Sequence record: OV696612
Origin: Escherichia phage Perceval
Length of the DNA stretch: 50,143 nucleotides
Reading direction: 5' to 3' (one strand)
The translations under genes and the position numbers were made by a program. Below, one piece after another: positions 1-41,128 of the stretch. How positions within the stretch are numbered: the first letter of the stretch is position 1; every line of letters begins with the position of its first letter. Under the pieces are notes generated by a model. The model was not told where the DNA came from, ran no database searches, and saw only the letters and a program-made list of their open reading frames with translations.

Positions 1-12
1 GGGCGGCGACCT
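1..12 (+). other. cos: left cohesive end (cos) of a lambda-type genome
   Basis: Window opens with GGGCGGCGACCTCGCGGGTTTTCGCTATTTATGAAAATTTTCCGG, the canonical lambda left terminus as recalled, and closes with ...CAACAGGTTACG, a lambda-type right terminus. Confidence 0.85.
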
Positions 13-52
13 CGCGGGTTTTCGCTATTTATGAAAATTTTCCGGTTTAAGG

Positions 53-168
53 CGTTTCCGTTCTTCTTCGCCGTAACCTAATGTTTTTATTTAAAACACC
101 CCCTGAAAAGAAAGGAAACGACAGGTGCTGAAAACGGGCTTTTTAGCCTCTGTCGTTTCCTTTCTCTG
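53..168 (+). promoter_or_regulatory. cosB-like terminase small-subunit binding repeats (R3 53-66, inverted R2 110-120, R1 154-166)
   Basis: Three copies of CGTTTCC(N)TTCT in direct/inverted orientation immediately upstream of nu1, arranged as in lambda cosB. Confidence 0.6.
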
Positions 169-189
169 TTTTTGTCCGTGGAATGAACA

Positions 190-709
190 ATGGAAGTCAA
201 CAAAAAGCAGCTGGCTGACATTTTCGGTGCGAGTATCCGTACCATTCAGAACTGGCAGGAGCAGGGAATGCCCGTTCTGCGAGGTGGTGGGAAGGGTAAT
301 GAGGTGCTTTATGACTCTGCCGCCGTCATAAAATGGTATGCCGAAAGGGATGCTGAAATTGAGAACGAAAAGCTGCGCCGGGAGGTTGAAGAACTGCGGC
401 AGGCCAGCGAGGCAGATCTCCAGCCAGGGACTATTGAGTACGAACGCCATCGACTTACGCGTGCGCAGGCCGACGCACAGGAACTGAAGAATGCCAGAGA
501 CTCCGCTGAAGTGGTGGAAACCGCATTCTGTACTTTCGTGTTGTCGCGGATCGCAGGTGAAATTGCCAGTATTCTCGACGGGCTCCCCCTGTCGGTGCAG
601 CGGCGTTTTCCGGAACTGGAAAACCGACATGTTGATTTCCTGAAACGGGATATCATCAAAGCCATGAACAAAGCAGCCGCGCTGGATGAACTGATACCGG
701 GGTTGCTGA

Positions 710-735
<26 letters not shown>
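190..735 (+). CDS. nu1: terminase small subunit Nu1
   Basis: ATG at 190; 181-aa product MEVNKKQLADIFGASIRTIQNWQEQGMPVLRGGGKGNEVLY... matches lambda Nu1 as recalled; N-terminal HTH. Confidence 0.95.
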
Positions 736-4416
<3,681 letters not shown>

Positions 4417-4436
<20 letters not shown>

Positions 4437-5748
4437 TCTCCCGCATATTGCCAGCATGGCCTTTAATGAGCCGCTGATGCTTGAACCCGCCTATGCGCGG
4501 GTTTTCTTTTGTGCGCTTGCAGGCCAGCTTGGGATCAGCCGCCTGACGGATGCGGTGTCCGGCGACAGCCTGACTGCCCAGGAGGCACTCGCGACGCTGG
4601 CATTATCCGGTGATGATGACGGACCACGACAGGCCCGGAGTTATCAGGTCATGAACGGCATCGCCGTGCTGCCGGTGTCCGGCACGCTGGTCAGCCGGAC
4701 GCGGGCGCTGCAGCCGTACTCGGGGATGACCGGTTACAACGGCATTATCGCCCGTCTGCAACAGGCTGCCAGCGACCCGATGGTGGACGGCATTCTGCTC
4801 GATATGGACACGCCAGGCGGAATGGTGGCGGGGGCATTTGACTGCGCTGACATCATCGCCCGTGTGCGTGACATAAAACCGGTATGGGCGCTGGCCAACG
4901 ACATGAACTGCAGTGCAGGTCAGCTGCTTGCCAGTGCCGCCTCCCGGCGTCTGGTCACGCAGACCGCCCGGACAGGCTCCATCGGCGTCATGATGGCTCA
5001 CAGTAATTACGGTGCTGTCCTGGAGAAACAGGGTGTGGAAATCACGCTGATTTACAGCGGCAGCCATAAGGTGGATGGCAATCCCTACAGCCATCTTCCG
5101 GATGACGTCCGGGAGACACTGCAGTCCCGGATGGACGCAACCCGCCAGATGTTTGCGCAGAAGGTGTCGGCATATACCGGCCTGTCTGTGCAGGCTGTGC
5201 TGGATACCGAGGCTGCAGTGTACAGCGGTCAGGAGGCCATTGATGCCGGACTGGCTGATGAACTTGTTAACAGCAGCGATGCGATCACCGTCATGCGTGA
5301 TGCACTGGATGCACGTAAATCCCGTCTCTCAGGAGGGCGAATGACCAAAGAGACTCAATCAACAACTGTTTCAGCCACTGCTTCGCAGGCTGACATCACC
5401 ACCGTGGAGCCTGCGAAGGAGGGCGAAAACGCCAGCGCGGCGCAGCCGGATGTGAACGCACAGATCACCGCAGCGGTTGCGGCAGAAAACAGCCGCATTA
5501 TGGGGATCCTCAACTGTGAGGAGGCTCACGGACGCGAAGAACAGGCGCGCGTTCTGGCAGAAACCCCCGGAATGACCGTGGAAACGGCCCGCCGCATTCT
5601 GGCCGCAGCACCACAGAGTGCACAGGCGCGCAGTGACACTGCGCTGGATCGTCTGATGCAGGGTGCACCGGCACCGCTGGCTGCAGGTAACCTGGCATCT
5701 GATACCAATAAAGAATTACTTAATACACCTGAAGCTTTACCGGTATAA
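4417..5748 (+). CDS. C: prohead protease / head maturation protein C (ClpP/S49-like)
   Basis: GTG at 4417 preceded by AGGAGG; product MTAELRNLPHIASMAFNEPLMLEPAYARVFF... matches lambda gpC; the ORF-track start at 4270 is an upstream in-frame alternative. Confidence 0.9.
5131..5748 (+). CDS. nu3: scaffolding protein Nu3 (in-frame internal start within C)
   Basis: In-frame ATG at 5131 preceded by GGAG; product MDATRQMFAQKVSAYTGLSVQAVLDTEAAVYSGQEAIDAGLADELVN...; lambda encodes Nu3 as the C-terminal in-frame part of C. Confidence 0.7.
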   Translation: MDATRQMFAQKVSAYTGLSVQAVLDTEAAVYSGQEAIDAGLADELVNSSDAITVMRDALDARKSRLSGGRMTKETQSTTVSATASQADITTVEPAKEGENASAAQPDVNAQITAAVAAENSRIMGILNCEEAHGREEQARVLAETPGMTVETARRILAAAPQSAQARSDTALDRLMQGAPAPLAAGNLASDTNKELLNTPEALPV

Positions 5749-5757
5749 GAGGCAGTT

Positions 5758-6090
5758 ATGGCGACAAAAGAAGAGTTTAACCATTACCAGCCGCTGGGTA
5801 ACAGTGATCCGGCTCATACAGCAATTGCGCCTGGCGGATTGAGTGCGAAAACGCCTGCAATGACCCCACTGATGCTGGATGGCACTACCCGTAAGCTGGT
5901 TGTGTGGGATGGCACCACCGACGGTGCAGCCGTTGGCATTCTTGCGGTTGCTGCTGACCAGACCAGCACCACACTGACGTTCTACAAGTCCGGCTCGTTC
6001 CGTTATGAGGATGTGCTCTGGCCGGAGGCTGCCAGCGACGAGACGAAAAAACGGACCGCGTTTGCCGGAACGGCAATCAGCATCGTTTAA
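5758..6090 (+). CDS. D: head decoration protein D
   Basis: 110 aa, ...[33 protein letters not shown]...TAISIV, matches lambda gpD. Confidence 0.95.
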
Positions 6091-6107
6091 TCTTCCCCTT
6101 CATCAAC

Positions 6108-6133
6108 AAAGGCCGCCTGTGCGGCTTTTTTTA
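6108..6133 (+). terminator. stem-loop plus T-run between D and E (possible attenuator)
   Basis: GGCCGC-CTGT-GCGGC followed by TTTTTTT directly after the D stop. Confidence 0.35.
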
Positions 6134-6145
6134 TGGAAATAATTT

Positions 6146-7171
6146 ATGTCTGTATATACAACTGCAGAATTACTGGCATCGACCCAGCATCACTTTAAGT
6201 TCGATCCGCTGTTTCTGCGCCTGTTTTTCCGTGAAACCTATCCTTTCACCACGGAAAAAGTCTATCTCTCACAAATTCCGGGACTGGTAAACATGGCGCT
6301 GTACGTTTCGCCGATTGTTTCCGGTGAGGTTATCCGATCCCGTGGCGGCTCCACCTCTGAATTTACGCCGGGTTATGTCAAACCCAAGCATGAGGTGAAT
6401 CCGCAGATGACCCTGCGTCGCCTGCCGGATGAAGATCCGCAGAACCTGGCTGACCCGGCTTACCGTCGTCGCCGTATTATTCGGCAGAATATGCTGGATG
6501 AAAATCTGGCGATTGCCCAGGTCGAAGAGATGCAGGCAGTTTCTGCCGTGCTTAAGGGCAAATATACCATGACCGGTGAAGCCTTCGATCCGGTTGAGGT
6601 GGATATGGGCCGCAGTGAGGCGAATAACATCACGCAGTCCGGCGGCACGGAGTGGAGCAAGCGTGACAAGTCCACGTATGACCCGACCGACGATATCGAA
6701 GCCTACGCGCTGAACGCCAGCGGTGTGGTGAATATCATCGTGTTTGATCCGAAAGGCTGGGCGCTGTTCCGTTCCTTCAAAGCCGTCAAGGAGAAGCTGG
6801 ATACCCGTCGCGGCTCTCATTCCGAGCTGGAGACAGCGGTAAAAGACCTGGGCAAAGCGGTGTCTTATAAGGGAATGTATGGCGATGTGGCCATCGTCGT
6901 GTATTCCGGACAGTACGTGGAAAACGGCGTCAAAAAGAACTTCCTGCCGGACAACACGATGGTGCTGGGGAACACTCAGGCACGCGGTCTGCGCACCTAT
7001 GGTTGCATTCAGGATGCGGACGCACAGCGCGAAGGCATTAACGCCTCTGCCCGTTACCCGAAAAACTGGGTGACCACCGGCGACCCGGCGCGTGAGTTCA
7101 CCATGATTCAGTCAGCACCGCTGATGCTGCTGGCTGACCCTGATGAGTTCGTGTCTGTACAACTGGCGTAA
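6146..7171 (+). CDS. E: major capsid protein E
   Basis: 341 aa, MSVYTTAELLASTQHHFKFDPLFLRLFFRETYPF..., matches lambda gpE. Confidence 0.96.
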   Translation: MSVYTTAELLASTQHHFKFDPLFLRLFFRETYPFTTEKVYLSQIPGLVNMALYVSPIVSGEVIRSRGGSTSEFTPGYVKPKHEVNPQMTLRRLPDEDPQNLADPAYRRRRIIRQNMLDENLAIAQVEEMQAVSAVLKGKYTMTGEAFDPVEVDMGRSEANNITQSGGTEWSKRDKSTYDPTDDIEAYALNASGVVNIIVFDPKGWALFRSFKAVKEKLDTRRGSHSELETAVKDLGKAVSYKGMYGDVAIVVYSGQYVENGVKKNFLPDNTMVLGNTQARGLRTYGCIQDADAQREGINASARYPKNWVTTGDPAREFTMIQSAPLMLLADPDEFVSVQLA

Positions 7172-7212
7172 TCATGGCCCTTCGGGGCCATTGTTTCTCT
7201 GTGGAGGAGTCC

Positions 7213-7608
7213 ATGACGAAAGATGAACTGATTGCCCGTCTCCGCTCGCTGGGTGAACAACTGAACCGTGATATCAGCCTGACGGGGACGAAAGAAGAAC
7301 TGGCGCTCCGTGTGGCAGAACTGGAAGAAGAGCTTGATGACACGGGCGACACTGCCGGTCAGGATATCCCTCTCAGCCCGGAAAATGTGCTGACCGGACA
7401 TGAAAATGAGGTTGTATCAGCGCAGCCGGATACCGTGACTGATACGGCTGATCTGGTCACGGTTGTGGCACTGGTGACGCTGCATACTGATGCACTTCAC
7501 GCCACGCGGGATGAGGCTGTGGCATTTGTGCTGCCGGGAACGGCGTTCCGTGTCTCTGCCGGTGTGGCAGCTGAAATGACAGAGCGCGGCCTGGCCAGAA
7601 TACAATAA
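7213..7608 (+). CDS. FI: DNA packaging protein FI
   Basis: ATG at 7213 after GGAGGAG; MTKDELIARLRSLGEQLNRDISLTGTKEELALRVAELEEEL... matches lambda FI; the ORF-track start at 7174 is upstream. Confidence 0.9.
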   Translation: MTKDELIARLRSLGEQLNRDISLTGTKEELALRVAELEEELDDTGDTAGQDIPLSPENVLTGHENEVVSAQPDTVTDTADLVTVVALVTLHTDALHATRDEAVAFVLPGTAFRVSAGVAAEMTERGLARIQ

Positions 7609-7619
7609 CGGGAGGCGCT

Positions 7620-7973
7620 GTGGCTGATTTCGATAACCTGTTCGATGCTGCCATTGCCTGCGCCGATGAAACGATACGCGGGTACATGGGAACGTCAGCC
7701 ACCATGACATCCGGTGAGCAGTCCGGTGCTGTGATACGTGGTGTTTTTGATGACCCTGAAAATATCAGCTATGCCGGACAGGGCGTGCGCGTTGAAGGCT
7801 CCAGCCCGTCCCTGTTTGTCCGGACTGATGATGTGCGGCAGCTGCGGCGCGGCGACACGCTGACCATCGGTGAGGAAAACTTCTGGATAGACCGGATTTC
7901 GCCGGATGATGGCGGAAGCTGTCATCTCTGGCTTGGGCGGGGCGTACCGCCTGCCGTTAACCGTCGCCGCTGA
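7620..7973 (+). CDS. FII: head-tail connector / head completion protein FII
   Basis: 117 aa, MADFDNLFDAAIACADETIRGYMGTSATMTSGEQ..., matches lambda FII; GTG start after GGGAGG. Confidence 0.93.
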   Translation: MADFDNLFDAAIACADETIRGYMGTSATMTSGEQSGAVIRGVFDDPENISYAGQGVRVEGSSPSLFVRTDDVRQLRRGDTLTIGEENFWIDRISPDDGGSCHLWLGRGVPPAVNRRR

Positions 7974-7984
7974 AAGGGGGATGT

Positions 7985-8563
7985 ATGGCCATAAAAGGTC
8001 TTGAGCAGGCCGTTGAAAACCTCAGCCGTATCAGCAGAACGGCGGTGCCCGGTGCCGCCGCAATGGCCATTAACCGCGTTGCTTCATCCGCGATATCGCA
8101 GTCGGTGGCACAGGTTGCCCGTGAGACAAAGGTACGCCGGAAACTGGTAAAGGAAAGGGCCAGGCTGAAAAGGGCCACAGTCAAAAATCCGCAGGCCAGA
8201 ATCAAAGTTAACCGGGGGGATTTGCCCGTAATCAGGCTGGGTAACGCGCGGGTTGTCCTGTCCCGACGCAGGCGTCGTAAAAAGGGGCAGCGTTCATCCC
8301 TGAAAGGTGGCGGCAGCGTGCTTGTGGTGGGAAACCGTCGTATTCCCGGCGCGTTTATTCAGCAACTGAAAAATGGCCGCTGGCATGTCATGCAGCGTGT
8401 GGCCGGGAAAAACCGTTACCCCATTGATGTGGTGAAAATTCCGATGGCGGTGCCGCTGACCACGGCGTTTAAACAGAATATTGAGCGGATACGGCGTGAG
8501 CGTCTTCCGAAAGAGCTGGGCTATGCGCTGCAGCATCAACTGAGGATGGTAATAAAGCGATGA
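7985..8563 (+). CDS. Z: tail completion protein Z
   Basis: 192 aa, MAIKGLEQAVENLSRISRTAVPGAAAMAINRVASS..., matches lambda gpZ. Confidence 0.93.
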   Translation: MAIKGLEQAVENLSRISRTAVPGAAAMAINRVASSAISQSVAQVARETKVRRKLVKERARLKRATVKNPQARIKVNRGDLPVIRLGNARVVLSRRRRRKKGQRSSLKGGGSVLVVGNRRIPGAFIQQLKNGRWHVMQRVAGKNRYPIDVVKIPMAVPLTTAFKQNIERIRRERLPKELGYALQHQLRMVIKR

Positions 8564-8955
8564 AACATACTGAACTCCGTGCAGCCGTACTGGATGCACT
8601 GGAAAAATATGACACCGGGGCGACGCTTTTTGATGGTCGCCCCGCTGTTTTTGATGAGGCGGATTTTCCGGCAATTGCCGTTTATCTCACCGGCGCTGAA
8701 TACACGGGCGAAGAGCTGGACAGCGATACCTGGCAGGCGGAGCTGCATATTGAAGTTTTCCTGCCTGCTCAGGTGCCGGATTCAGCGCTGGATTCGTGGA
8801 TGGAGTCCCGGATTTATCCGGTGATGAGCGATATCCCGGCACTGTCAGATTTGATCACCAGTATGGTGGCCAGTGGCTATGACTACCGACGCGACGATGA
8901 TGCGGGCCTGTGGAGTTCAGCCGATCTGACTTATGTCATTACCTATGAAATGTGA
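8560..8955 (+). CDS. U: tail terminator protein U
   Basis: 131 aa, [43 protein letters not shown]..., matches lambda gpU. Confidence 0.93.
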
Positions 8956-24104: not shown

Positions 24105-24928
24105 CTTTCTTCCCTCTGCACCGCTGACGGTCGATGAGCCACAAAAGGGCGTTCATCGTCAGTAATAATGCTTTCTTCCGAGCCGTTAAGTGTGACATGG
24201 CGCAGTACGCCGCTAAAAGCCAGCTCTAGGTTCTCGGCTGTAAAAGTGGTGTCTGTCGGCCCGCTTGCTAGGACGGTGCCTTTGACCATGACCGTATAAT
24301 CGCAAAATGTCGTGACGGATCCGAGATTGTGTGTTGAGACAAGCATCGTTTTGCCTTCCGCGCGTAACTCCCTCAACAGGCTGATGATTTTGGCTTCGGT
24401 TTTCACATCAACGCCAGTAAAAGGTTCATCCAGCAGGATCACATCACCCTGCTGTGCAATCGCTCTCGCCAGAAAGACGCGTTTCTTTTGTCCACCGGAA
24501 AGCTCGCCGATTTGTCGATGGCGAAAATTCACCATATCGACACGTTCCAGCGCATCGGTGACAATTTGACGATCCCTCTTTTTGGCGATACGCAACATAC
24601 CCATATGCCCATAGCGGCCCATCATCACCACATCTTCCACCAGTACAGGAAATGACCAGTCAACATCTTCTGACTGAGGGACGTAGGCAACCAGGTTTTT
24701 CTGTAACGCCTGTCGCGTGGGAATACCCAGAACAGATATCTTTCCGCTGGTCAGACGCACAAATCCCATAATCGCTTTAAACAACGTCGATTTTCCGGAA
24801 CCGTTTACCCCAACCAGAGCGGCAATAGATCCACTTGGTACTGTGAAGGATGCATCGCGCAGTGCTGTGTGCCCGTTACGCCAGGTGACAGTAACATCAT
24901 TAACGACAATGCCTGCAGATTGCATCAT
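24101..24928 (-). CDS. sitB: Mn/Fe ABC transporter ATP-binding protein SitB
   Basis: 275 aa; Walker [13 protein letters not shown] signature LSGGQKKR, Walker [12 protein letters not shown]. Confidence 0.9.
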
Positions 24929-38296: not shown

Positions 38297-38595
38297 CGGG
38301 CAAAGAGGCAATTATTCATTACCTGGGGACGCATAAGAGCTTCTGTGCACAGGACGTTGCCGCGGTAACAGGCGCAACCGTAACCAGCATAAATCAGGCT
38401 GTGGCTAAAATGGCGCGGGCAGGAATCCTGGTCGTTGATGGTAAGGTCTGGCGAACGGTGTATTATCGGTTCGCTACCAGAGAAGAACGGGAAGGAAAGG
38501 TGAGCGCGAATTTGATTTTTAAGGAGTGTCGCCAGAGTGCCGCGATGAAACGGGTATTGAGGGTATATAAAAGAACATCAATGGGTACACAATGA
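38293..38595 (+). CDS. ren: Ren protein
   Basis: 100 aa, MTGKEAIIHYLGTHKSFCAQDVAAVTGATVTSINQAVAKMARAGILVVDGKVWRTVYYRF..., matches lambda Ren. Confidence 0.88.
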   Translation: MTGKEAIIHYLGTHKSFCAQDVAAVTGATVTSINQAVAKMARAGILVVDGKVWRTVYYRFATREEREGKVSANLIFKECRQSAAMKRVLRVYKRTSMGTQ

Positions 38596-38662
38596 TGAAA
38601 CAGGTGAGTTGAGTTCAAACTGTAGTACAATTCTCTCCAGTTTGAACAGGAAAGAATATGCT

Positions 38663-38995
38663 ATGAACCCTTATATTTATCTTGGTGGTGCAATACTTGC
38701 AGAGGTCATTGGTACAACCTTAATGAAGTTTTCAGAAGGTTTTACACGGTTATGGCCATCTGTTGGTACAATTATTTGTTATTGTGCATCATTCTGGTTA
38801 TTAGCTCAGACGCTGGCTTATATACCTACAGGGATTGCTTATGCTATCTGGTCAGGAGTCGGTATTGTCCTGATTAGCTTACTATCATGGGGATTTTTCG
38901 GCCAACGGTTGGACCTGCCAGCCATTATAGGCATGATGTTGATTTGTGCCGGTGTGTTGGTTATTAATTTATTGTCACGAAGCACACCACATTAA
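38663..38995 (+). CDS. emrE: small multidrug resistance (SMR) efflux transporter EmrE
   Basis: ATG at 38663; 110 aa MNPYIYLGGAILAEVIGTTLMKFSEGFTRLWPSVGTIICYCASFWLLAQTLAYIPTGIAYAIWSGVGIV... matches E. coli EmrE including catalytic Glu14; same position as emrE in DLP12. Confidence 0.9.
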   Translation: MNPYIYLGGAILAEVIGTTLMKFSEGFTRLWPSVGTIICYCASFWLLAQTLAYIPTGIAYAIWSGVGIVLISLLSWGFFGQRLDLPAIIGMMLICAGVLVINLLSRSTPH

Positions 38996-39250
38996 AAATA
39001 ATTTATTTTTAAACGACTAAAATATGGAGGTTCGTATATTTGTATGGGCCTCGTTTTATGCTTTTTGTTAATGTCTTTAGTTTTTATTCATTCTTTTGAT
39101 CTTTCAAGATCATGGTGTAAGAAAATTGCAATACGATTATTGTTGTATATTCAAGATAATGTGACCTTAATTGTCTTTTTAAATAAAAATTAAACAAAAA
39201 TCATATCTCACCACTAAGGTTTATAAAAGCATACTTTAGCAGGTGTCACC

Positions 39251-40777
39251 ATGAAAAAAGCCATAGCATATATGCGATTTTCATCACCAGGTCAGATGTC
39301 TGGTGATTCATTAAACCGCCAGAGAAGGCTTATTACTGAATGGCTAAAGGTAAATAGTGATTATTACCTTGATACCGTAACGTATGAAGATTTGGGGTTA
39401 AGCGCATTCAATGGAAAGCATGCACAATCAGGAGCTTTTTCGGAATTTTTAGATGCTATAGAACATGGTTACATATTGCCAGGGACTACATTGTTAGTTG
39501 AAAGTCTGGACAGACTTTCAAGAGAAAAAGTCGGTGAAGCGATTGAGCGTCTGAAATTGATTTTGAATCACGGTATTGATGTTATAACTCTTTGCGATAA
39601 TACAGTCTATAATATAGACTCATTGAATGAGCCATATTCATTAATAAAAGCCATACTTATAGCACAAAGGGCAAATGAAGAAAGCGAGATAAAGTCAAGT
39701 CGGGTTAAATTATCATGGAAGAAAAAACGGCAGGATGCACTGGAATCAGGCACGATTATGACGGCGTCTTGTCCGAGATGGCTCTCATTGGATGACAAAA
39801 GAACAGCTTTTATTCCAGACCCCGACAGGGTGAAAACGATTGAGCTAATTTTTAAACTCAGGATGGAAAGGCGATCATTGAATGCAATAGCTAAGTATTT
39901 AAATGATCATGCTGTAAAAAATTTTTCAGGAAAAGAAAGTGCATGGGGGCCTTCTGTAATTGAAAAATTATTAGCGAATAAAGCTCTGATAGGTATATGC
40001 GTACCTTCATATCGTGCAAGAGGGAAAGGGATAAGTGAAATCGCTGGCTATTATCCCAGAGTCATATCAGATGATTTGTTTTACGCTGTACAGGAAATTC
40101 GGTTGGCACCTTTTGGTATTAGCAATAGTAGCAAGAATCCTATGCTAATAAATCTACTTCGAACAGTTATGAAGTGTGAGGCTTGTGGTAATACCATGAT
40201 TGTTCATGCGGTATCTGGACGTTTGCATGGCTATTATGTTTGTCCGATGAGAAGATTACATCGATGTGACAGGCCATCAATAAAAAGAGATTTGGTTGAT
40301 TATAATATCATTAATGAATTGCTTTTTAATTGTAGCAAAATTCAACCAGTTGAAAACAAGAAAGATGCTAATGAAACTTTAGAGTTAAAAATTATTGAGC
40401 TTCAGATGAAAATTAATAATTTAATCGTTGCATTGTCTGTCGCGCCTGAAGTTACCGCTATAGCAGAGAAAATAAGACTATTAGATAAGGAATTACGAAG
40501 GGCTTCGGTATCATTAAAAACTTTGAAGAGTAAAGGGGTGAGTTCACTTGGTGATTTTCATGCTATTGATTTAACCAGTAAAAATGGGCGAGAGCTATGT
40601 CGTACACTTGCCTATAAAATATTCGAAAAAATTATAATTAATACAGATAATAAAACCTGTGATATCTATTTTATGAATGGCATTGTTTTTAAACACTATC
40701 CTTTAATGAAAGTAATATCCGCCCAGCAGGCGATAAGTACTCTTAAATATATGGTTGATGGTGAGGTTTATTTTTGA
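39251..40777 (+). CDS. ybcK: large serine recombinase (YbcK-like)
   Basis: 508 aa; N-terminal resolvase-type catalytic domain (AIAYMRFSSPGQ...SLNRQ, nucleophile Ser in RFSS), C-terminal Cys cluster (CEACGN...C...C) and coiled coil; AT-rich. Confidence 0.8.
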   Translation: MKKAIAYMRFSSPGQMSGDSLNRQRRLITEWLKVNSDYYLDTVTYEDLGLSAFNGKHAQSGAFSEFLDAIEHGYILPGTTLLVESLDRLSREKVGEAIERLKLILNHGIDVITLCDNTVYNIDSLNEPYSLIKAILIAQRANEESEIKSSRVKLSWKKKRQDALESGTIMTASCPRWLSLDDKRTAFIPDPDRVKTIELIFKLRMERRSLNAIAKYLNDHAVKNFSGKESAWGPSVIEKLLANKALIGICVPSYRARGKGISEIAGYYPRVISDDLFYAVQEIRLAPFGISNSSKNPMLINLLRTVMKCEACGNTMIVHAVSGRLHGYYVCPMRRLHRCDRPSIKRDLVDYNIINELLFNCSKIQPVENKKDANETLELKIIELQMKINNLIVALSVAPEVTAIAEKIRLLDKELRRASVSLKTLKSKGVSSLGDFHAIDLTSKNGRELCRTLAYKIFEKIIINTDNKTCDIYFMNGIVFKHYPLMKVISAQQAISTLKYMVDGEVYF

Positions 40778-41101
40778 GTAATAATCACTTTTTCAACCGT
40801 GCTATGGTATGAAAGTAAAGTAACTAATATGATATTAACTATCTTGAACGAAGCGCCCTGAGCTATAGTTTTACTATAGGCACTGTCACTGGATGTTGGC
40901 ATTCTTGCTCTAGTAGCTCAACAATACCCAATCACAAAACAATTCACTGATAACAAACTTTGTGCACGTGCTTGGTTATGGCGAACAGGTGATGTTAACC
41001 TCTTGCCAGAATGCCACTCCACTTCATTAAGTATCTGAGCACCGAGAGGCTGGTCACGCCCCCATTAAAAATAATTTCTTTTGAATCGAGTGAAATAGGT
41101 T

Positions 41102-41128
41102 AGCCCGCATAAGTGCGGGCTGCTTTTT
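41102..41128 (+). terminator. rho-independent terminator (plus strand), overlapping the hydrolase gene stop
   Basis: AGCCCGCA-TAAG-TGCGGGCT followed by GCTTTTT. Confidence 0.6.

Follow-up and report, generated by a model that had tools for sequence, protein, structure and literature searches.

The gene ybcK of Escherichia phage Perceval encodes a large serine recombinase and is probably the integrase of a minimal element, composed of an attachment site (attP) and the integrase gene within 2073 bp, that is nested within a lambdoid prophage, in its nin region. The window analysed here is the whole 50,143-nt stretch of sequence record OV696612, to which all positions refer. Perceval carries what appears to be the intact integrated form, with both junctions. 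The annotation of Perceval ybcK as a large serine recombinase is already published; what is new is where the unit begins and ends, which sequences are its candidate attachment (att) sites, that empty sites occur in nature, and that the family has a second nested element. The features of the unit and its target site are as follows.

39005-41077, plus strand: nested unit of 2073 bp, composed of the YlcJ open reading frame (ORF), the ybcK leader, ybcK, and a 283-nt 3′ flank; precisely absent from the empty sites.
38987-39024, plus strand: attL-like junction, copy 1 of a 38-nt direct repeat, with the core at 38990-39004.
41060-41097, plus strand: attR-like junction, copy 2 of the 38-nt direct repeat, with the core at 41063-41077, 2073 bp from copy 1.
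39027-39052, plus strand: terminator-like hairpin found in a terminator scan, at the left end of the unit and now 3′ of emrE.
39044-39193, plus strand: ylcJ-like ORF of 49 residues, hydrophobic (Pfam YlcJ, 2e-28), inside the unit and 5′ of ybcK.
39251-40777, plus strand: ybcK, 508-residue large serine recombinase, the proposed integrase of the unit.
41101-41122, no strand assigned: GC-rich hairpin followed by a T-run, the original emrE terminator, convergently common to the esterase gene; it belongs to the target and not to the unit.
41040-41077 joined to 39005-39045: reconstructed attP (predicted).

An earlier reading of the letters of this DNA by a model (the original prediction) suggested looking for the recombination sites of YbcK as short repeats in 38.6-42.6 kb. 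The search is positive, and the repeat that it detects is a 38-nt direct repeat around ybcK. The two copies are identical at 32/38 positions, as compared with 24.8±0.9 positions (maximum 27) in dinucleotide-preserving shuffles of the region. They share an identical 15-nt core, CATTAAAAATAATTT, of which the 50 kb contain no third copy. In copy 1 the core extends over the emrE stop codon (38993-38995), and the boundaries of the unit are ambiguous within the 15 nt. The core of copy 1 sits within a perfect 21-nt palindrome (38992-39012), so the candidate att site has dyad symmetry. A terminator-like hairpin lies 3′ of each copy, and the hairpin at 41101-41122 is directly 3′ of emrE in the empty sites. 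We also considered copy 2 as a relic of a second small multidrug resistance (SMR) gene and rejected this, because tblastn and blastn comparisons of emrE with the 3′ flank match the 38-nt site only. The 3′ flank of ybcK is thus no SMR gene in decay, and the repeat is confined to a short and discrete site.

Within the unit, ybcK is the sole recombinase gene. Its ATG is positioned 247 nt inside the attL-like junction, the gene reads inward, and the attR-like junction lies 283 nt past its end. The GC content of the unit is 35.5%, as compared with 49.6% for Perceval overall, a foreign composition. The first ~90 nt 3′ of the ybcK stop codon (40778-40870; GCTATGGT..., TTAAYTATCTTGAACGAAGC) are kept in all variants, at an identity below that of the coding sequence, and the flanks beyond are unrelated among variants. 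The kept segment may be a functional 3′ element of ybcK.

Loci that lack the unit have the expected empty site. This site was predicted first, as a synthetic query joining emrE through copy 2 to the esterase junction. Among 5426 complete E. coli genomes, Rb-50 and F467 match this query at 1028/1028 bases without a break. The gene order at both sites is ren-emrE-esterase-ybcN, and at the junction the left arm of copy 1 leads precisely through the core into the right arm of copy 2. A degenerate pattern covering all four junction forms was then run on viral and metagenome contigs and located further empty sites in four viral contigs and two metagenome contigs, which makes eight in all, each with this composite junction. 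In every occupied contig examined, the 2073-bp spacing is constant.

Strain Rb-50: natural attB (candidate), containing CACGAAGCACACCACATTAAAAATAATTTCTTTTGAATCGAGTGAAATAGG.
L014, L015, L020, L023, L027, L031, L117, and L124: loci without the unit (precise absence).

The ybcK allele classes are 3.4% diverged (synonymous divergence, dS, 0.13), as compared with 1.2% for the adjacent emrE in the same genomes, with small counts. This gap could come from independent insertions at the same site, that is, a discordant history, or from different constraint on the two genes. In the empty-site prophage of F467 (L015, 671-2244), a gene for a HipA-family kinase and a DUF3037 gene adjoin the repressor gene.

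The original prediction assigned to YbcK an N-terminal resolvase-type domain with a nucleophilic serine in the motif RFSS, followed by a C-terminal region with a cysteine cluster and a coiled coil. Both assignments hold. Pfam domains score above their curated cut-offs at residues 4-161 (Resolvase, 8e-19), 191-284 (Recombinase, 2e-14), and 302-357 (Zn_ribbon_recom, 5e-8), and PHROGs groups YbcK among integrases. In an alignment of 25 sequences of the YbcK family, down to 29% identity, residues R9, S11, D87, R88, and R91 are invariant, as are the zinc cysteines C309, C312, C331, and C339. We take the former to be the equivalents of the catalytic residues R8, S10, D67, R68, and R71 of γδ resolvase. 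By this correspondence, S11 matches resolvase S10, so the nucleophile is presumably the first serine of RFSS. No catalytic residue is missing, a point on which the original prediction had in part been made to hinge.

The AlphaFold2 model of YbcK (mean predicted local distance difference test score, 80.8) contains a catalytic part that matches the fold of the resolvase catalytic domain, a long αE helix (residues 128-166), a zinc ribbon, and a coiled coil formed by an antiparallel pair of helices (residues 367-397 and 401-427). The best Foldseek matches of the model are the full-length integrases of SPbeta, Bxb1, phiC31, and A118, with E values from 1e-19 to 5e-11. A single-sequence phmmer search of YbcK against the Protein Data Bank (PDB) returns zero relatives. 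The profile of the 25-member family, run against the PDB, matches the Listeria A118 integrase, the SPbeta integrase, and the TP901-1 catalytic domain, and its alignment to the A118 integrase covers the A118 coiled coil. By its domains, residues, and modelled coiled coil, YbcK is an intact large serine recombinase, and catalysis is predicted. In comparison with the K-12-type allele, the ratio of nonsynonymous to synonymous substitution rates (dN/dS) of ybcK is 0.07 (40 synonymous and 12 nonsynonymous changes), and all five alleles are intact, indicating from the alignments that ybcK is under strong purifying selection.

The ORF call gives exactly the ATG-initiated frame of 508 codons that had been proposed for YbcK. 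The original prediction did not mention that this gene is the long-known, uncharacterised ybcK of the K-12 prophage DLP12 (b0544, P77698), to which it is orthologous with 96.6% nucleotide and 98% amino acid identity, or that it is already annotated in Perceval. In E. coli LF82, where the prophage is named Perceval, ybcK is PERCE_51 and is tabulated as 'Large serine recombinase' (PMC9928086 supplement). The PERCE_51 transcript is near background in LB medium and rises together with its neighbours under macrophage conditions (PMC9928086). The Perceval ybcK region is 100% identical in the LF82 chromosome and in the isolated phages 4A7, Lambda_4C10, 1W, 3W, and PhiR47_2. Overall, 1424/5426 complete E. 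coli genomes carry ybcK, nearly always as a single copy, and the alleles fall into two classes, with at least 99% identity to Perceval in 166 genomes and 95-99% in 1255 genomes.

Three reports on K-12 bear on the unit. The ybcK leader contains a Rho/NusG-dependent terminator that silences ybcK (PMC4150792), Hfq/polyphosphate binds ybcK DNA with a silencing effect (PMC10954037), and the 49-residue YlcJ encoded upstream of ybcK is an expressed small protein (PMC6001520). In addition, the lambda-type integrase and excisionase pair named in the original prediction is found on the minus strand, the integrase at 28037-29179 with arm-binding and Phage_integrase domains and the excisionase at 29169-29405.

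We propose the following scheme. A circular form of the unit would recombine, in a Campbell-type event presumably catalysed by YbcK, with a site made up of the 3′-terminal codons of emrE, the stop codon, and the DNA that precedes the terminator. The crossover would take place inside the 15-nt core and generate attL (38987-39024) and attR (41060-41097). The unit would supply its own emrE-3′-like arm and terminator hairpin, and because it brings both, emrE would be left intact and terminated. The gene, positioned between P/ren and ninB-Q, would be silent in the lysogen, and in lytic growth N-antiterminated transcription from PR would read through it; this location and the silencing data from K-12 suggest expression only under N antitermination. 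The element may or may not still be able to move, and its excision would probably need some directionality factor. The original prediction had suggested that the recombinase might excise a local segment or be a remnant of another element. What stands of this is a discrete 2073-bp unit with att-like direct repeats and empty sites; the surrounding island is not one element. On our best reading, ybcK encodes neither an invertase nor a second whole-phage integrase.

A second nested element lends weight to this scheme. A homologue with 59% identity to YbcK is located in the nin region of another lambdoid prophage (L126), in a 2980-bp segment carrying genes for the recombinase, a KGG protein, and DinI. 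The segment is flanked by 181-nt direct repeats of 86% identity, each of which corresponds to codons 1-59 of a DUF1367 gene, duplicated with almost solely synonymous differences. From the left junction to the start of the recombinase gene, inside the segment, the distance is 148 nt. A 541-residue relative (39% identity to YbcK), whose gene is 92-96% identical in nucleotide sequence among Mixta, Serratia, Leclercia, and Rahnella, is encoded ~60 nt from a junction inside the conserved gene hofB, at the edge of an island. The layout in which the recombinase gene starts just inside a junction thus recurs, at 247 nt in Perceval, 148 nt in L126, and about 60 nt in hofB.

Other relatives occupy the ends of prophages. 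In Atlantibacter, a prophage ends with the gene for the homologue, which is convergent with ssrA and 540 nt from the ssrA 3′ end, the usual position of an integrase gene. The homologues of Erwinia, Yersinia, and Ewingella lie 3′ of tail-fibre genes at the prophage end, and the Citrobacter homologue (L041) adjoins oppositely oriented tail-fibre and J genes. In a tblastn search of a phage collection, close relatives of YbcK occur in E. coli lambdoids only, so no complete phage with a close YbcK relative as its sole integrase was identified there.

Some further genes were observed at these loci. In the nin region of L126, a gene for a 646-residue protein with a SIR2_2 domain (5755-7695) lies 5′ of the nested element and is a candidate defence gene in the same hotspot. 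In the hofB islands (L050-L053, about 6940-8626 plus flanks), hofB encodes a GspE-like ATPase and lies beside hofC-guaC-coaE, and a small Hin-like serine recombinase gene is found about 4 kb into the island.

The proposed element resembles known systems in part. Phage serine integrases use att sites of about 40-50 bp that are dyad-symmetric and recombine by crossover at a central dinucleotide, and excision needs a directionality factor. With SPbeta SprA, A118/LI Int, Bxb1, phiC31, and TP901-1, YbcK has in common the three-domain architecture with the coiled coil, the catalytic residues, a gene within a few hundred bp of a candidate att junction, and a short, dyad-symmetric candidate site. It differs in that identity is only 15-19% in structural alignments, and in that its element is only 2.07 kb, lacks replication, packaging, or a recognisable directionality factor, and is nested in a phage with its own tyrosine integrase. 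In addition, the predicted attP and attB of YbcK have a 15-nt identical core and similar arms. A common core of 15 nt is longer than in most characterised serine integrase pairs and near the 16 bp of SPbeta.

Large serine recombinases also move non-phage elements as circles, as in Tn4451 (TnpX), Tn5397 (TndX), and SCCmec (CcrAB). These elements carry resistance cargo and are several kb or larger, and TnpX and TndX excise and insert alone. The ybcK unit, in contrast, is integrase-only, and no excision product was found in the contigs scanned.

Among published elements, cluster10915 of Durrant et al. is a parallel. It is listed on an integrative element in the category 'Other', with attB and attP that were predicted by comparative genomics and have a 26-nt common core in a terminator hairpin (PMC10083194 supplement 3). 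That supplement shows 399 residues of the cluster representative, and over these the identity to YbcK is ~65%. As far as the supplement describes it, this element resembles the ybcK unit in its long identical att core and terminator-hairpin target, and differs in core sequence and host contig; the core given there is absent from all loci compared here.

The DLP12 prophage of K-12 has the same gene in the same place, after ren-emrE-ylcJ. There, however, ybcL-ybcM takes the place of the esterase cargo and no right-hand site is left, whereas Perceval has both junctions and the esterase gene. A K-12-type unit with an attR of its own was tried as a candidate and rejected, since the flank contains only a degenerate trace of the core and is unrelated beyond about 90 nt (50.7% identity, as compared with 49.2±1.2% after shuffling).

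Several observations weigh against assigning the unit to YbcK. On both arms the repeat copies match in register, which is how a plain duplication would look. The palindrome has an odd centre, whereas serine integrases cut at a 2-bp centre. An identical core of 15 nt could also allow recombinase-independent or Red-mediated exchange. The 2073-bp unit contains no recognisable gene for a directionality factor, and the viral and metagenome contigs scanned contain neither an attP (circle) nor a tandem junction. All eight empty sites carry one linked SNP and hence represent one lineage, which is as compatible with one old insertion, or one old deletion, as with mobility. The sampled E. coli genomes have the unit at one target only, always 3′ of emrE, and most copies (K-12, Turner, and O157 types) are without attR, with flanks unrelated beyond ~90 nt. 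No bracketing repeats were found at the homologues of Pantoea (L006), Erwinia (L009), Yersinia (L004), or Atlantibacter (L007). The dN/dS of 0.07 is unexplained, and it is puzzling for an apparently stranded integrase without a recognisable directionality factor. Finally, the literature searched refers to YbcK only as a 'putative recombinase', with no description of sites or activity and no recombination assay.

Lambdoid mosaicism through short boundary homologies is a serious rival, although we consider it unlikely. In this account, ybcK is a moron-type module that homologous or illegitimate recombination has shuffled into the ren-ninB hotspot, and the repeats are boundary homologies, namely a duplicated emrE 3′ end with its terminator. 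The empty form, or loss of the unit, would result from recombinase-independent exchange, the junctions would not be made by YbcK, and YbcK would have another role or none. The ren-ninB slot is clearly a mosaic hotspot in which emrE, ybcK, and cargo each behave independently. Homology to Perceval stops 9, 66, or 212 nt past the ybcK stop codon, depending on the lineage, and always restarts at one right junction, 42435. The duplication-like register of the arms and the single lineage of the empty sites are likewise expected under mosaicism, and E. coli is known to delete DNA between short direct repeats without RecA (PMC5426353). In the Pantoea pairs L042/L057 and L006/L047, homology is limited to the gene and short flanks, with no repeated core. 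Mosaicism leaves unexplained, however, why the sole gene enclosed by the repeats encodes a site-specific recombinase and starts just inside a junction, why the 59%-identical relative in L126 is likewise enclosed, by other repeats at another target, why relatives occur at the edges of islands and prophages, and why dN/dS is 0.07 with all catalytic residues kept. Moreover, reciprocal, base-precise junctions in one 15-nt core require a circular intermediate in either model.

A Pantoea recombinase unit of about 1.8 kb, from -223 to +56 relative to the gene, is 94% identical in nucleotide sequence between L042/L043 and L057, with no repeated core at its boundaries. Its neighbours in P. dispersa are ordinary genes of the chromosome; in Candidatus Pantoea alvi it has phage O/P-like genes on either side. 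The two P-like fragments of L057 were considered as a split gene; this was rejected, as the two are overlapping paralogous copies.

A second function for YbcK is improbable, more so than mosaicism. The protein would be domesticated or would act on other sites, for example in resolving or rearranging phage or prophage DNA, as a secondary whole-phage integrase, or in trans on other prophages, and the local repeats would be historical. This would account for strong purifying selection, which holds also in lineages that lack attR and in DLP12 despite its decay, and for the homologues in integrase position at the prophage ends of Atlantibacter, Erwinia, Yersinia, and Ewingella. The Perceval sequence, however, contains no further copy of the core and no att-like partner, the phage integrates at icd by means of its own integrase and excisionase, and there are no rearranged forms among the sampled genomes and no match to a defence system. 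In the one assay found, which scored excision of the H47 island, K-12 ybcK mutants had no reported recombination phenotype.

The inversion envisaged in the original prediction is hardly credible: serine recombinases do include invertases, the esterase gene runs in the other direction, and the junctions contain a palindrome, so YbcK might be imagined to flip a cargo or promoter segment and thereby switch expression of emrE or the esterase gene, but the significant repeats are direct, 172/172 full-length genomic matches are collinear single pieces with no half-covered or inverted pattern in a spread sample, and YbcK, with 508 residues and recombinase, zinc-ribbon, and coiled-coil domains, has the large-integrase architecture and not that of the Hin/Gin/Cin/Pin invertases (~190 residues, C-terminal helix-turn-helix, inverted sites). 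We reject inversion because the inverted repeats around ybcK and the cargo are only short, AT-rich pairs of chance quality.

A broader generalisation from the integrase-only element of Perceval is tentative, and we hold it with considerable doubt. The YbcK family might consist of minimal hitchhikers (attP plus integrase gene, 2-3 kb) that insert at terminator-proximal or gene-end sites in lambdoid nin regions, stay silent in the lysogen, are expressed from the N-antiterminated early transcription of the phage itself, and spread between co-replicating lambdoid genomes. If so, they would be parasites of a parasite, with a native E. coli serine integrase and its att pair.

In K-12, ybcK has long been uncharacterised and previously had no proposed substrate. 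It now has concrete candidate att sites and natural attB sequences in Rb-50 and F467. If YbcK is active, it would provide a native serine integrase and att pair for E. coli, the 'moron island' of the prophage would include a nested mobile element besides cargo, and the unit would be an example of an integrase-only element within a temperate phage. If YbcK is inactive, it would have to be explained why selection so strongly preserves an integrase that is apparently stranded. The biochemistry itself is standard, and the value lies in candidate substrates for a widespread E. coli gene and in a possible class of lambdoid integrase-only hitchhikers.

The genes on both sides of the unit are modules in their own right.

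38663-38995, plus strand: emrE, SMR efflux pump (NCBIfam EmrE, 240.6 bits, cut-off 226); its 3′ end and terminator are the target site, and it is outside the unit.
41127-42170, minus strand: esterase, a BD-FAE α/β hydrolase (Pfam); independent cargo right of the target site, outside the unit.

The original prediction placed ybcK in an AT-rich island with emrE and an oppositely oriented hydrolase gene. The GC content is indeed 0.31-0.40 across 38.75-41.0 kb, as compared with 0.496 for the whole Perceval sequence, and both genes are confirmed; the island, however, is not one element, and its pieces occur independently. The esterase gene, with 44.6% GC, is less AT-rich than the remaining island. 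In K-12 and PhiR34_1, ren-emrE-ybcK is followed by ybcL-ybcM. Phage Turner has small ORFs 3′ of ybcK, and O157 strains have no cargo there. In FDAARGOS_536, an inverse autotransporter gene replaces ren-emrE-ybcK beside the same esterase gene, and emrE and ybcK are absent; UTI89 has emrE-ybcL-ybcM without ybcK. Because the modules occur separately in other genomes, emrE and the esterase gene are outside the element of ybcK. An Rfam scan of 38300-42800 detects zero RNA families, and YbcK, the esterase, and EmrE have no match to PADLOC defence models at E<=0.01.

In FDAARGOS_536 (L011, 1060-4968), the inverse-autotransporter gene is 3.9 kb long and directly follows gene P, and the boundary of the esterase module corresponds to 41123. 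The segment 42435-42480 is the universal right junction of the ren-ninB slot, including in phages without emrE and ybcK, such as phage 82. It contains the palindrome TTGATTA-TGAA-TAATCAA, a TTGATT/CATAAT pair that resembles a promoter (42436-42464), and one arm of a GTCACCGGAG hairpin. At the homologous place, the phage 82 record has annotated -35/-10 signals and a site to which a regulator may bind.

Phage 4A7 is collinear with Perceval over the ybcK region, integrates at icd, and has sitABCD, a porin gene, emrE, and the esterase gene. Collinearity is broken in the first 7.8 kb of Perceval (1-7845) and also at about 21580. An insertion sequence with three transposase ORFs in 4A7 (L116, 20875-23291) is not in Perceval. 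The sitABCD genes are also present in Perceval and are homologous to 4A7 24135-27584.

Strains of the B2 group, including LF82, contain a tiny remnant, fliE-emrE-ybcL-ybcM-ompC-yedK, without ybcK (UTI89, L012, 4078-7521). In LF82, the chromosomal emrE remnant is at 1975332-1976405 (PMC9928086 supplement). The emrE of the B2 remnant is 92% identical to phage-borne emrE and constitutes a second emrE locus, outside any intact prophage.

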